Source: Candidatus Atelocyanobacterium thalassa isolate ALOHA (lineage in GTDB: Bacteria > Cyanobacteriota > Cyanobacteriia > Cyanobacteriales > Microcystaceae). Taken from it: a stretch of 32,000 nt of DNA. A program made the translations under genes and the position numbers. Shown one piece after another: positions 16,468-16,922 of this stretch; position 1 is the first letter of the stretch, and each line of letters opens with the position of its first letter. The notes under the pieces were generated by a model. It searched no databases. It was given only the letters and a program-made list of their open reading frames with translations, and had not been told where the DNA came from. The DNA lies in assembly GCF_000025125.1 (NCBI RefSeq), contig NC_013771.1, positions 1,380,001-1,412,000 of the forward strand. The letters run 5' to 3'.

Positions 16468-16573
16468 ACAATAAGAAATCATGGCAGAAAATAATTAATT
16501 TCAGCTTGCGAAATAAACAATTATTTTTTTGCTTAATATTGTACACATATGTCAAATATGGATGATTATCATT

Positions 16574-16579
16574 TATAAT
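16574..16579 (+). promoter_or_regulatory. Candidate -10 box (TATAAT) for the tRNA gene
   Basis: A perfect TATAAT lies 14 nt upstream of the tRNA 5' end. The -35 region at 17-nt spacing is poor (GTCAAA). Confidence 0.3.
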
Positions 16580-16593
16580 GTGATGTTAATAAT

Positions 16594-16922
16594 GGGGCTA
16601 TAGCTCAGTTGGATAGAGCAAGCGCCTCCTGAAGTTCGGGCATTCTGATTGGAAACATCAGACATGAATGTGGTCAAATTCAAGGAAACCTAAGTTCTTA
16701 TTGGGATAAGGCAATCTTGAGCCAAGCTCTAAACCCCTTTTTAGAGAAGGTGCAGAGACTGGTTATCAGCATTTAGGGAAAAGTTTTAATTTAAAAAGCT
16801 GATAGCATTACGGCCACCACCTAAGGATAAATACTATCTAGGGTGAAGGGATAGTCCAGAGAGTAAGGAAACTTACACAAATCTGAAGCGCTAGGTCGCT
16901 GGTTCGAATCCAGCTAGTCCCG
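16594..16922 (+). tRNA. tRNA-Arg(CCU), split by a group I intron between positions 36 and 37 (exon 1 16594-16630, exon 2 16886-16922)
   Basis: The cloverleaf was folded by hand. The acceptor stem is GGGGCTA/TAGTCCC and the D arm is GCTC-AGTTGGATA-GAGC, with A20. The anticodon stem is AGCGC/GCGCT with loop CU-CCU-AA after splicing. The T arm is GCTGG-TTCGAAT-CCAGC and the discriminator is G. CCA is not encoded. Confidence 0.9.
16631..16885 (+). ncRNA. Group I self-splicing intron (IC3-like, Azoarcus-type core), 255 nt, no ORF
   Basis: U precedes the 5' splice site and the intron ends in G. Core strings resemble the Azoarcus tRNA-Ile intron: GTCAAATTCAAGGAAACCTAAG, GAGCCAAGC, GAAGGTGCAGAGACT and CCACCACCTAAGGATAAATACTATC. 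A P2-like hairpin pairs 16644-16649 with 16657-16662, and an extended P8-like hairpin pairs 16762-16770 with 16798-16806. A GAAA-tetraloop hairpin, GTAAG-GAAA-CTTAC, lies at 16863-16876. Confidence 0.88.

Follow-up and report, generated by a model that had tools for sequence, protein, structure and literature searches.

The tRNA-Arg(CCU) locus

The window analysed in this study is a 32-kb stretch of the genome of UCYN-A1 (Atelocyanobacterium thalassa isolate ALOHA), a marine symbiont that fixes nitrogen, and it is the reference for all positions given below. Proteins encoded in it proved identical to ADB95905.1 and ADB95904.1 of this isolate. The locus comprises a tRNA-Arg(CCU) gene in two halves, the insert that separates them and an upstream promoter-like box.

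16574-16579 (+): TATAAT box (-10-like), 15 nt before the 5' end of the mature tRNA (sequence readout)
16594-16630 (+): tRNA-Arg(CCU) exon 1 (ARAGORN on spliced and unspliced DNA)
16631-16885 (+): group I (IC3-type) intron, 255 nt, no ORF (Rfam, P1-P9 model, covariation, RNAalifold)
16886-16922 (+): tRNA-Arg(CCU) exon 2 (ARAGORN and sequence readout)

Exon 1, the 3' end of which reads ...GCGCCTCCT, contains the 5' strand of the acceptor stem, the D arm, the 5' strand of the anticodon stem, C32, U33 and the anticodon C34 C35 U36. The insert runs from GAAGTTCGGG to CACAAATCTG. Exon 2 starts with AAGCGCTAGG... and contains A37, A38, the 3' strand of the anticodon stem, the variable loop, the T arm, the 3' strand of the acceptor stem and the discriminator G; CCA is not encoded at its 3' end. 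The insertion point is therefore in the anticodon loop, between U36 and A37.

An earlier note on this DNA had proposed that two 37-nt halves form a cloverleaf with the anticodon loop CU-CCU-AA when 16631-16885 is excised. Sequence readout showed that all its coordinates for the split tRNA are exact, and ARAGORN agreed with the proposal: the joined segments 16594-16630 and 16886-16922 were recognized as a canonical tRNA-Arg(cct) with this loop, the predicted spliced junction being ...GCGCCUCCU joined to AAGCGCUAGG.... When the intron search was enabled on the unspliced DNA, the same program reported tRNA-Arg(cct) i(38,255). The proposed insertion after a U, with a G at the end of the insert, was also borne out. 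Moving the junction by -1 to -4 altered the anticodon, and shift 0 alone gave both the U before the intron and the terminal G, as in 20 of 20 homologues. At default settings, ARAGORN found no tRNA across the whole 32-kb window, the part of the UCYN-A genome that the tRNA search covered. Standard annotation would therefore miss this gene.

The insert has stop codons in all six frames of 16631-16885. In agreement with the ORF-less reading of the 255 nt, it contains no usable ORF and encodes no homing endonuclease. The UCYN-A copy can be counted among the mobile group I introns at most as a past or passive member.

A TATAAT box is located 14-18 nt 5' of the tRNA also in UCYN-A2, Crocosphaera chwakensis, Cyanothece BG0011 and the Crocosphaera-like contig L132. 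The box at 16574-16579 is probably the promoter of the pre-tRNA, a role that we infer, since a consensus promoter scan at the locus gave no excess over the shuffle background.

Identification of the insert as a group I intron

The Rfam model RF00028 (Intron_gpI) matched the insert with 69.7 bits (E = 6e-16; gathering score 50), and this was the sole Rfam match in the window. The matched span, 16543-16878, is offset from the true intron because the P1/P2 portion of the model fell on upstream DNA. Homologous introns from other genomes and contigs gave similar scores (UCYN-A2, labelled L005, 70.4; L128, 65.2; L024, 63.9; L119, 62.5 bits). The Azoarcus core strings that the earlier note had named are present, namely GTCAAATTC...GAAACCTAAG, GAGCCAAGC, GAAGGTG[C/T]AGAGACT and CCACCTAAGG, and they match the Azoarcus ribozyme sequence as printed in PMC8890501, which was used for the comparison. 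In the MAFFT alignment the identity to the Azoarcus intron was 67% over 191 aligned positions, a few N positions of the printed sequence being filled in.

The architecture is that of the IC3 subgroup: P2.1 and P5abc are absent, and there are a single P2, a P9.0 and a short P9. The sole extra element is a hairpin, P7.1. The catalytic hallmarks, which are the U·G pair at the 5' splice site, the GGG guide, P7 with its bulged A and the terminal G, were found in 20 of 20 homologues. On the sequence evidence, the element is thus confirmed as an ORF-less group I intron of the IC3 (Azoarcus-like) type, inserted in tRNA-Arg(CCU) 3' of the anticodon. It is a real intron and probably a functional one.

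Secondary structure

The structure was tested by MAFFT, RNAalifold and explicit pair counts over an alignment (A2) of 20 tRNA-Arg(CCU) introns. The elements of the model are as follows (in the last line, the slash marks the splice site).

16628-16640 (+): P1, exon C-C-U paired with the guide G8-G9-G10 (16638-16640)
16641-16666 (+): P2 hairpin, L2 GAAA tetraloop at 16652-16655; compensatory changes at 7 of 10 pairs
16670-16675 (+): P3 5' strand, GUGGUC, pairing with 16812-16817
16680-16720 (+): P4 (16680-85 with 16715-20) and the enclosed P5 and P5a
16689-94 with 16707-11 (+): P5, 11-nt-receptor-like CCUAAG...UAAGG (structure model)
16695-98 with 16703-06 (+): P5a, three covarying pairs
16721-16751 (+): P6 (GCC/GGU) and the P6a hairpin (16727-33 with 16740-46) (structure model)
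16755-16760 (+): P7 5' strand, G-A(bulge)-G-A-C-U, invariant in 20 of 20 homologues
16762-16806 (+): extra hairpin P7.1, between P7 and P3' (structure model)
16812-16817 (+): P3 3' strand, GGCCAC (structure model and pair counts)
16820-16843 (+): P8 hairpin, second 11-nt-receptor-like motif CCUAAG...UAGGG (register from RNAalifold)
16853-16857 (+): P7 3' strand, AGUCC, with J8/7 (GUGAAGGGAU) directly before it (structure model, Azoarcus comparison)
16858-16884 (+): P9.0 (AGA 16858-60 with UCU 16882-84), enclosing P9 (structure model, RNAalifold)
16863-67 with 16872-76 (+): P9 hairpin, L9 GAAA tetraloop at 16868-71 (structure model, RNAalifold)
16885 (+): terminal guanosine (omega-G) and 3' splice site; ...TCTG/AAGCG invariant in 20 of 20 homologues

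All 72 proposed P1-P9 pairs, including those of the P3-P7 pseudoknot, are canonical in the window. Over the 20 introns, standard pairs occupied 93.7% of the cells, against 30-42% when the partners were slid by 1-3 columns, and 33 pairs showed compensatory double changes; none of 500 shuffles reached any of these measures. RNAalifold independently recovered P1, P2, P3, P4, P5, P5a, P6, P6a, P8, P9.0 and P9. The single-sequence fold was only moderately better than those of shuffled sequences (z = -2.16). An initial register of P8 with two bulges was dropped in favour of the receptor-type register given by RNAalifold, which raised the paired cells from 92.2% to 93.7%.

The helices contribute differently to this result. 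P1, P6, P7 and P9.0 are invariant, so that covariation is uninformative for them; in addition, the 22-nt pattern of the homologue search spans the 3' strand of P7 and the 5' strand of P9.0, where invariance was thus forced. In P1, U36·G8 forms the wobble pair at the 5' splice site and G1-C7 closes a 5-nt loop; its four pairs are the same in 20 of 20 homologues. All 20 sequences have six standard pairs in P3 (100% paired), three of which are double-changed, including a G-C to A-U change in UCYN-A2. P4 is 99% paired with three covarying pairs (CAAG/CUUG vs CGGU/ACCG), and P6a covaries at 6 of 7 pairs. In P8, the pairs that close the helix are standard in every one of the 20 introns, and three distal pairs covary; in P9 all cells are paired (100%), one pair covarying and another varying by wobble. 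P7 (16755-16760 with 16853-16857) would form the guanosine-binding helix, pseudoknotted with P3.

The P2, P8 and P9 hairpins and a GAAA tetraloop had been noticed before. There are in fact two GAAA tetraloops, and the hairpin between P7 and P3' (16762-16806) had been overlooked. This hairpin, P7.1, has a 9-bp stem (16762-70 with 16798-806) and a 27-nt A/U-rich loop without coding capacity. It was found in 15 of the 20 homologues, which form a clade with 99% bootstrap support, and is missing from five short forms and from Azoarcus.

The L2 and L9 GAAA tetraloops would, according to the model, dock into the P8 and P5 receptors, respectively. Each receptor motif, UAAGG in P5 and UAGGG in P8, is one position off the canonical UAUGG, and the deviant position is one at which the homologues, too, differ (U, A, C, G). 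A search for a P10 helix joining exon 2 to the guide region yielded no convincing candidate.

Comparison with known tRNA introns

Among the known systems, a close one is the intron in pre-tRNA-Ile(CAU) of Azoarcus sp. BH72, an IC3 intron that serves as a model ribozyme with crystal structures. It is likewise inserted immediately 3' of the anticodon. Both introns have a 3-bp P1 with the guide about 7-8 nt into the intron (GUG in Azoarcus, GGG in UCYN-A), lack P2.1 and P5abc, and share the L2 GAAA/P8 receptor and L9 GAAA/P5 receptor pairs and P9.0. P7 is identical (GAGACU/AGUCC), and J3/4, J6/7, J8/7 and the P9.0 region are nearly so. The host tRNAs, however, are Ile(CAU) and Arg(CCU). The Azoarcus intron is about 205 nt in length, compared with 255 nt in UCYN-A, which is longer because of the 45-nt hairpin between P7 and P3'. 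The UCYN-A intron is also A/U-rich (40% G+C), and each of its receptors has one changed position. The tree, which covers Arg(CCU) and tRNA(CAU) introns, places Azoarcus among the latter and shows the Arg(CCU) family as a cluster apart from them.

The introns of Agrobacterium tumefaciens and Bartonella bacilliformis (BbgpI), compared here by their published descriptions only, reside in the same host gene with the same anticodon and are also ORF-less. The interrupted alphaproteobacterial tRNA-Arg(CCU) is likewise missed by tRNAscan-type annotation; the host phylum differs. According to the literature these introns are inserted beside CCU, and PMC7717549 gives CCT at the junction.

The introns of cyanobacterial and plastid tRNA-Leu(UAA) and of cyanobacterial tRNA-fMet are also of the IC3 type, sporadic and located in tRNA anticodon loops, but they reside in other tRNAs and at another position than the Arg(CCU) intron. 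Endonuclease ORFs occur in some of the tRNA-fMet introns. The tRNA-Leu intron also became part of an organelle, the plastid, which parallels the retention of the present intron in UCYN-A, the nitroplast. According to PMC5733544, the cyanobacterial tRNA introns reported until then were those of Leu(UAA) and fMet only. The 22-49-nt "group I introns" listed for cyanobacterial tRNA-Arg(ACG), Gly and Lys in the same paper are unrelated and too short for group I ribozymes.

Distribution of the intron in cyanobacteria

UCYN-A2 carries the same intron at the same locus, with the same gene order: SBP, tRNA-Arg (with intron), PPC-domain gene and CobS. A survey of Crocosphaera/Cyanothece relatives showed that the locus is polymorphic. 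An intron-bearing tRNA-Arg gene lies directly 3' of the same SBP (transporter) gene in C. chwakensis CCY0110 and in the Crocosphaera-like contig L119, while an intron-less one occupies this position in Cyanothece BG0011 and in L132. The exon sequence in BG0011 is the same as in the intron-bearing alleles (74/74), and in L132 it is almost the same. BG0011 adjoins the intron-bearing C. chwakensis in the SBP tree. The earlier view that the intron is unusual for a reduced genome was thus not upheld: the intron sits at the orthologous locus in UCYN-A2, CCY0110 and a Crocosphaera-like contig, and the family is wider still.

In the neighbour-joining tree of the introns, the UCYN-A pair was grouped with 100% bootstrap support and the pair plus the Crocosphaera introns with 61%. 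The four SBP-linked introns (UCYN-A1, UCYN-A2, CCY0110 and L119) are mutual nearest relatives in this tree. No SBP-linked tRNA was present at that locus in C. subtropica 51142, the Crocosphaera MAG L129, Rippkaea PCC 8801 and the endosymbionts of Epithemia turgida and Rhopalodia gibberula; a search with an nhmmer intron profile detected no intron remnant at these five tRNA-less SBP loci.

Introns of the same family were found in about 27 metagenome contigs and, among named taxa, in Leptolyngbyaceae, Oscillatoria acuminata and Coleofasciculus chthonoplastes. In L010, L049, O. acuminata PCC 6304 and Coleofasciculus PCC 7420 (loci labelled L010, L049, L135 and L136), P7.1 contains a LAGLIDADG_2 ORF (E = 1e-30 to 1e-37), and antisense HNH ORFs are present in seven other loci. 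The introns of PCC 6304 and PCC 7420 share with UCYN-A the site (CCT/GAA...ATCGGGC ... TCTG/AAGCG), the core and a P7.1 stem that begins with GGTT and ends with ...AAC(N)4-5ACGGCC. They are 868-917 nt in length, with a 206-211-aa LAGLIDADG_2 ORF looped out from P7.1, whereas the UCYN-A stem closes on a 27-nt loop. In NCBI, these two ORFs are annotated merely as 'LAGLIDADG / DNA endonuclease'. The states of the family are therefore LAGLIDADG-bearing, HNH-bearing, empty-stem, minimal and intron-less. We call the family mobile because homing-endonuclease genes, of the LAGLIDADG or the HNH type, occur in some of its introns; all copies seen in the UCYN-A/Crocosphaera group lacked such a gene. As judged from the sequences, a tRNA-Arg(CCU)-specific intron family is widespread in cyanobacteria.

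A scan of the genome collection with GTCAAATTCNNNGRAAACCTAAG, which is too strict a pattern (C. chwakensis has GGAAGCC there), returned a chance match in Proteiniclasticum with no Rfam signal. The same pattern had no match in the viral contigs, and a blastn search of the plasmid collection gave none. UCYN-A2 contains GTCAAATTCNNNGRAAACCTAAG yet was not returned by the scan; the stretch is probably masked in, or absent from, the collection.

Conservation between UCYN-A1 and UCYN-A2 and codon usage

Between UCYN-A1 and UCYN-A2 the exons are 100% identical, and the introns, of equal length, are 91% identical. The corresponding values are 84-88% for the neighbouring coding sequences, 74% for the third codon positions of the SBP gene, and 58% and 81% for the flanking intergenic DNA. 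Several of the substitutions that separate the two introns, located in P2, P3 and P5a, are compensatory; a U-A pair of P2 in UCYN-A1, for example, is replaced by G·U in UCYN-A2 with the pairing kept.

AGG accounts for 30 of the 285 Arg codons in the window (10.5%; 3.9 per 1000 codons) and is used in 17 of the 22 long ORFs. The suggestion that AGG is rare and its tRNA potentially dispensable was somewhat too strong: AGG is a minor codon, but not a negligible one, and there is a demand for tRNA-Arg(CCU).

Proposed splicing mechanism

From the structure model, we infer that the UCYN-A intron is spliced and that it is capable of self-splicing. The pre-tRNA would be transcribed from its own TATAAT promoter, and the P3-P9 catalytic core would then fold, with the L2 GAAA in P8 and the L9 GAAA in P5 acting as clamps. 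The final bases of exon 1, CCU, would pair with the internal guide GGG, the U·G wobble marking the cleavage site. A free guanosine bound in P7 would attack 3' of U36. The terminal G255 would subsequently take the same pocket, and ligation of the exons would restore the anticodon loop CU-CCU-AA. RNase P and the CCA-adding enzyme would complete the tRNA.

History of the intron

The presence of the intron in UCYN-A1 and UCYN-A2 suggests that it predates their divergence. It was most probably already present in the common ancestor of UCYN-A and Crocosphaera, as suggested by the linked SBP gene and the intron tree. The case for vertical descent consists of one linked gene, one node with 61% bootstrap support and a single-gene host tree. 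The UCYN-A copy would then be an endonuclease-free form, which keeps an empty P7.1 stem where its relatives hold a LAGLIDADG gene. It would have been kept through genome reduction by purifying selection, because the tRNA could not be made without splicing. Taken as a whole, we consider this explanation, which combines the identity of the intron, the proposed splicing mechanism and the proposed history, to be highly probable. The more specific proposition is that the Arg(CCU) intron represents a third, as yet undescribed class of cyanobacterial tRNA group I intron, which goes through a full homing cycle in free-living cyanobacteria, and that the empty-stem copy of UCYN-A was inherited from the Crocosphaera lineage and kept into the nitroplast; for this we see an even balance.

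It is worth noting that the same intron could have a different history. Lateral transfer and endonuclease-driven homing may have brought it separately into the UCYN-A stem, C. chwakensis and L119, with the endonuclease being lost afterwards. Its presence at one orthologous locus is patchy among close relatives, the exons of the intron-less BG0011 and L132 are identical or nearly identical to those of intron-bearing alleles, and BG0011 stands beside the intron-bearing C. chwakensis in the SBP tree. Moreover, members bearing homing endonucleases exist in the family, the empty P7.1 stem of UCYN-A is the insertion site of LAGLIDADG genes, and the clade of UCYN-A and Crocosphaera introns is supported at just 61%. 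This history, however, needs at least three independent gains of closely related introns in one gene of one clade, where the alternative needs two precise losses and rearrangements. In addition, the four SBP-linked introns are nearest to one another in the tree, and the UCYN-A/Crocosphaera group showed no copy with an endonuclease. Repeated loss and repeated homing would explain the intron-less alleles of BG0011 and L132 equally well. Under either history, the intron is older than the split between UCYN-A1 and UCYN-A2. We regard separate lateral gains as a tentative alternative, on the unlikely side.

A second possibility concerns splicing and refines the favoured explanation as a whole without displacing it. 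The intron may be functional but non-autonomous, needing in vivo a protein cofactor such as an aminoacyl-tRNA synthetase or an RNA chaperone, possibly supplied by the host in the nitroplast. The low G+C content of the intron (40%, against about 60-70% in the very stable Azoarcus ribozyme) and a fold just modestly more stable than shuffles are consistent with this idea. Long-range tetraloop-receptor clamps, however, make IC3 introns self-sufficient, and both are retained in UCYN-A. Group I introns are generally protein-assisted in vivo according to a review cited in PMC7717549, but the same paper describes self-splicing in vitro for the related tRNA-Arg(CCU) intron of Bartonella. A dependence on a cofactor seems to us unlikely.

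Finally, it is very improbable that the intron is a decaying relic, spliced inefficiently in what has become a tRNA pseudogene with AGG read by tRNA-Arg(UCU): the genome is strongly reduced (about 30% G+C), AGG has a minor share of the Arg codons (10.5%) and both tetraloop receptors are off the canonical 11-nt motif, but the exons (100%) and intron (91%) are conserved above the intergenic DNA (58-81%) and third positions (74%), the substitutions between UCYN-A1 and UCYN-A2 keep the pairing in P2, P3 and P5a, every catalytic hallmark is intact, and the receptors deviate at the one receptor position that varies among homologues.

Significance

In our literature search, no published description of a cyanobacterial tRNA-Arg(CCU) intron family was found. 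The present analysis adds Arg(CCU) to Leu(UAA) and fMet as intron-bearing tRNAs of cyanobacteria. A recent Prokka-based comparison of UCYN-A genomes gave 35-37 tRNAs and did not mention the intron (PMC12234771). As default tRNA finders overlook this gene, gene lists and codon-capacity analyses probably lack the AGG decoder of UCYN-A and of many other cyanobacteria.

The SBP-linked locus offers alleles with and without the intron whose exons are identical, and endonuclease-bearing forms exist elsewhere in the family. Together they make a compact system for the study of how bacterial group I introns are gained, lose their endonuclease and are precisely lost. In a nitrogen-fixing, organelle-like symbiont, the expression of tRNA-Arg(CCU) would hinge on RNA self-splicing, in parallel with plastid trnL. 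If the proposed reading is true, UCYN-A would be the second independent case, after plastid trnL, of a self-splicing intron of bacterial origin that became fixed in the genome of an organelle.

Identification of an interrupted tRNA-Arg(CCU) gene

Default ARAGORN detected no tRNA in the whole 32-kb window. The earlier note had proposed that two halves form a tRNA-Arg(CCU) cloverleaf once an insert, an ORF-less group I intron, is removed. When 16631-16885 was excised, ARAGORN indeed returned, at exactly these coordinates, a canonical 75-nt tRNA-Arg with the anticodon CCT and the loop CU-CCU-AA. On the intact DNA, its intron search gave tRNA-Arg(cct) i(38,255). The gene is composed as follows.

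16594-16630, forward strand: exon 1 of tRNA-Arg(CCU)
16631-16885, forward strand: group I intron, 255 nt
16886-16922, forward strand: exon 2 of tRNA-Arg(CCU)

The junctions read GCAAGCGCCTCCT / GAAGTTCGGGCATTC ... CACAAATCTG / AAGCGCTAGGTCGC, with the slashes after 16630 and 16885. The anticodon changed when the junction was moved by -1 to -4, and the group I rule invoked in the note, under which the insert follows a U and ends in G, holds only at the unshifted junction. The sole Rfam match in the window was RF00028 (Intron_gpI), which scored 69.7 bits (gathering score 50; E = 6e-16), in agreement with the proposed intron class. Its span, 16543-16878, is offset from the true intron because P1 and P2 of the Rfam model were placed too far upstream; it is the tRNA that fixes the true boundaries. 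All six frames of 16631-16885 contain stops and no ORF was found there, as the note had stated. The identification of a tRNA-Arg(CCU) split by a group I intron is therefore practically certain.

Since default ARAGORN is blank and the Rfam boundaries are wrong, automated annotation would at best record an "intergenic" ribozyme and would miss the tRNA-Arg(CCU). A Prokka-based comparison of UCYN-A genomes gives 35-37 tRNAs and does not mention the intron (PMC12234771).

ADB95905.1 and ADB95904.1 of A. thalassa isolate ALOHA are identical to the proteins flanking the feature, which makes the window UCYN-A1; the same sequence is also present on Tara Oceans scaffolds. The G+C content of the window is about 30%. 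AGG, called rare in the earlier note, is a minor codon (30 of 285 Arg codons in the 22 long ORFs of the window), yet it is in use, occurring in 17 of these 22 ORFs. Each of the five loci linked to the SBP transporter gene has a TATAAT box 14-18 nt upstream of the tRNA, which suggests that the tRNA gene has its own promoter, but the signal in a consensus promoter scan was not above background.

Structure of the intron

The Rfam alignment was combined with the sequence of the Azoarcus ribozyme given in PMC8890501, in which a few N positions were filled in, to build a P1-P9 model. The model is complete, including the P3-P7 pseudoknot expected in the earlier note, and all proposed pairs are canonical in the window. 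No convincing P10 pairing was found. [quoted passage not shown]

Elements of the intron model (window coordinates)
P1: exon C-C-U with G8-G9-G10; U36·G8 at the cleavage site; loop closed by G1-C7
P2: 16641-51 with 16656-66; GAAA tetraloop cap
P3: 16670-75 with 16812-17; GUGGUC with GGCCAC
P4: 16680-85 with 16715-20
P5: CCUAAG...UAAGG inside
P5a, P6 (GCC with GGU) and P6a: after P5
P7: 16755-60 with 16853-57; G-A(bulge)-GACU with AGUCC; pseudoknot with P3
P7.1: hairpin at 16762-16806, between P7 and the 3' strand of P3; 9 bp, 27-nt A/U-rich loop
P8: second motif, CCUAAG...UAGGG
P9.0: AGA with UCU
P9: GUAAG-GAAA-CUUAC
Terminal G: 16885

The P7 sequence is identical to that of the Azoarcus tRNA-Ile intron, and the two GAAA loops and two 11-nt-receptor-like motifs match its L2-P8 and L9-P5 clamps. 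We infer by analogy that the loops would actually dock into these motifs. In a MAFFT alignment, the two introns were 67% identical over 191 positions (a few Azoarcus N positions filled in), which bears out the Azoarcus-like (IC3) core recognized in the earlier note. P7.1 is the only element missing from the Azoarcus intron, and this hairpin accounts for the length of 255 nt as against about 205 nt. On all features that could be tested, the element is a group I intron of subgroup IC3. The Azoarcus intron is its nearest characterised structural relative. Its nearest functional analogues are the alphaproteobacterial tRNA-Arg(CCU) introns. Bartonella BbgpI self-splices, and its host tRNA gene is likewise unannotated (PMC7717549).

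According to PMC5733544, only Leu(UAA) and fMet introns had been reported in cyanobacteria; the 22-49-nt "introns" of that study itself are a different matter from the present element. The searchable, incomplete literature yielded no account of a group I intron in a tRNA-Arg(CCU) gene of cyanobacteria, which is absence of evidence only, and the papers in it that treat UCYN-A together with introns do not mention the present one.

Covariation among homologous introns

Homologues were collected by a metagenome scan with the J8/7-P7-P9.0 string common to the window and Azoarcus introns, which yielded at least 120 loci. Among the matches listed, the ARAGORN intron search gave at least 50 loci of tRNA(CAU), at least 17 of tRNA-Arg(CCU) with short introns and about 10 more with long introns, and at least 3 of tRNA-Arg(UCU). 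Twenty tRNA-Arg(CCU) introns were aligned, namely those of the window, UCYN-A2 and C. chwakensis and 17 metagenomic copies, including a Crocosphaera-like contig (L119).

The junctions CCT/G...TCGGGCA and ...TCTG/AAGCG are common to all 20 introns. Standard pairs occupy 93.7% of the cells; shifting the 3' partners by 1-3 columns lowers this share to 30-42%. Two-sided changes were found at 33 pairs (151 cells), and none of 500 shuffles matched the real structure on any of five measures. The covarying helices are P2, P3, P4, P5a, P6a, P8 and P9; P4, for example, is CAAG/CUUG or CGGU/ACCG, and P3 pairs change between G-C and A-U or between U-A and C-G. Covariation is silent on P1, P6, P7 and P9.0 because they are invariant, with an ascertainment bias in that the 3' strand of P7 and the 5' strand of P9.0 lie inside the search string. 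RNAalifold, run without a supplied model, missed only the P7 pseudoknot and P7.1, which is poorly aligned; it recovered all other helices and suggested the receptor-type P8 register adopted in our model. The single-sequence fold recovered P2, P3, P4, P5, P7.1, P8 and P9 (z = -2.16).

Conservation between UCYN-A1 and UCYN-A2

UCYN-A2 (AP024987.1) has the same gene order as UCYN-A1: NDK, SBP, tRNA-Arg(CCU) with a 255-nt intron, the PPC-domain gene and CobS.

Identity between UCYN-A1 and UCYN-A2
Exons: 100%
Intron: 91%, net length change 0
NDK coding sequence: 88%
PPC coding sequence: 86%
SBP coding sequence: 84%
SBP third codon positions: 74%
Downstream intergenic DNA: 81%
Upstream intergenic DNA: 58%

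Pairing is preserved where the two introns differ in P2 (U-A to G·U), P3 (G-C to A-U) and P5a. Together with the identities, these facts indicate that the intron is under stronger constraint than the adjoining genes, as would be expected if tRNA production needs splicing. The intron is probably functional, and it very likely splices.

Orthologous loci and history of the intron

Orthologous loci were reached via the SBP gene, in the survey of Crocosphaera/Cyanothece relatives advised in the earlier note. In C. chwakensis CCY0110, SBP is followed after 45 nt by tRNA-Arg(CCU) with a 263-nt intron. L119, with an SBP that shares 94% identity with its counterpart in a 'Crocosphaera sp.' MAG, has the same layout with a 264-nt intron, 81.6% identical to the window intron. 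The tRNA-Arg(CCU) directly downstream of SBP is uninterrupted in a Tara Crocosphaera-like scaffold (L132:3914-3987) and in Cyanothece sp. BG0011 (L133:3851-3926), and the BG0011 exons are identical (74/74) to the intron-bearing C. chwakensis and L119 alleles. The SBP-linked tRNA-Arg(CCU) thus shows an intron presence/absence polymorphism at one locus. At the position downstream of SBP, and for that position only, the tRNA and any intron remnant are absent in C. subtropica 51142, another Crocosphaera MAG, the Epithemia and Rhopalodia endosymbionts and Rippkaea 8801.

In the Epithemia turgida endosymbiont, more than 2 kb after SBP contains no called genes, and the corresponding stretch of more than 2 kb in the Rhopalodia gibberula endosymbiont contains two short ORFs (54 and 58 aa); these may be decayed DNA of reduced genomes. 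On the intron-less Tara scaffold, an IS605 OrfB/TnpB (Cas12f-like) gene (L132:317-1582) lies just upstream of the ABC_tran-SBP-tRNA-Arg cluster.

A neighbour-joining tree was made of 74 introns (189 columns), with metagenomic members from the matches listed. The two UCYN-A introns are sisters (bootstrap 100%), and this pair joins the introns of C. chwakensis and L119 at 61%; all Arg(CCU) introns form a group at 69%, and the P7.1-carrying forms one at 99%. Azoarcus is placed among the tRNA(CAU) introns. In the simplest reading, the common ancestor of UCYN-A and Crocosphaera would already have carried the intron in its SBP-linked tRNA-Arg(CCU), and some lines would later have lost it precisely. 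Vertical inheritance from a Crocosphaera-like ancestor is the reading we favor, with some reserve. Repeated homing of the intron into empty tRNA-Arg(CCU) alleles is a serious alternative of lower probability. Under either vertical inheritance or homing, the intron is older than the UCYN-A1/A2 split.

Endonuclease genes and the P7.1 hairpin

Short forms without P7.1 (202-242 nt) were found in a Leptolyngbyaceae MAG (L110) and in a contig (L024) that encodes a large WD40 protein and tocopherol cyclase. Two long metagenomic introns, L010 (843 nt) and L049 (922 nt), carry a sense-strand LAGLIDADG_2 ORF between P7 and P3' (E = 2e-30 and 7e-37, respectively). Many cyanobacteria have named homologues of this protein that are 55-93% identical, among them Desmonostoc, Symploca, Lyngbya, Laspinema, Phormidium, Spirulina and Oxynema. 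Two loci with such homologues were retrieved and both are tRNA-Arg(CCU) genes split at the site of the window intron: Oscillatoria acuminata PCC 6304 (CP003607.1; L135:1226-2218, 917-nt intron) and Coleofasciculus chthonoplastes PCC 7420 (DS989841.1; L136:1275-2219, 868-nt intron). The ORFs in these four introns (206-233 aa) are looped out of the P7.1 stem. In PCC 6304 and PCC 7420, the stem starts with GGTT... and closes with ...AAAC(N)4-5ACGGC, and it is the homologue of the hairpin at 16762-16806. Since the LAGLIDADG ORFs of relatives sit in the homologous stem, UCYN-A P7.1 is best interpreted as a docking stem for a homing-endonuclease gene that is empty here. The gene may have been lost from it or else never acquired; the 27 loop nucleotides are compatible with both.

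Antisense HNH ORFs (125-169 aa) lie between P3 and the 3' strand of P4 in at least seven loci (L016, L053, L067, L094, L111, L116 and L127), with introns of 649-708 nt. Five of the seven HNH-bearing tRNA-Arg(CCU) loci have another exon type, GCCCCAGTAGCTCAAAGGATAGAGC...CTCCT/AAGGCCGAGG.

In two filamentous-type cyanobacterial loci (L024 and PCC 7420), tRNA-Arg(CCU) has tocopherol cyclase on one side and a DUF218 gene on the other; in PCC 6304, too, DUF218 is downstream of it. This second conserved neighbourhood is distinct from the SBP linkage of Crocosphaera/UCYN-A, and of its two loci one has a 223-nt intron, the other the 868-nt endonuclease-bearing intron.

The tRNA(CAU) genes, at least 50 within L008-L127, have Azoarcus-like introns of 193-232 nt, among which Azoarcus nests; the contig names suggest mostly freshwater or sediment metagenomes. 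In one of them (L037:2790-3157, Ga0256341_1003160), the terminal G of the IC3 intron directly abuts a second near-identical copy, inside which the contig ends; the two copies are either a tandem intron arranged head to tail or a product of faulty assembly. In three loci (L032, L042 and L065), related introns of 200-327 nt interrupt tRNA-Arg(UCU) on the 3' side of the anticodon; they stand beside the Arg(CCU) cluster in the tree at a weak bootstrap of 18%. An interrupted tRNA-Arg-TCT is known from Beggiatoaceae (PMC4853749).

Implications

The window intron is a further example of a known intron type, not a new type. Owing to the annotation gap, the AGG-decoding tRNA is probably absent from UCYN-A gene lists. 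Across cyanobacteria, the Arg(CCU) family covers the whole range of states: introns with an endonuclease gene, with an empty stem or of minimal form, and genes that lack the intron. UCYN-A has kept its intron even as its genome moves towards that of an organelle.
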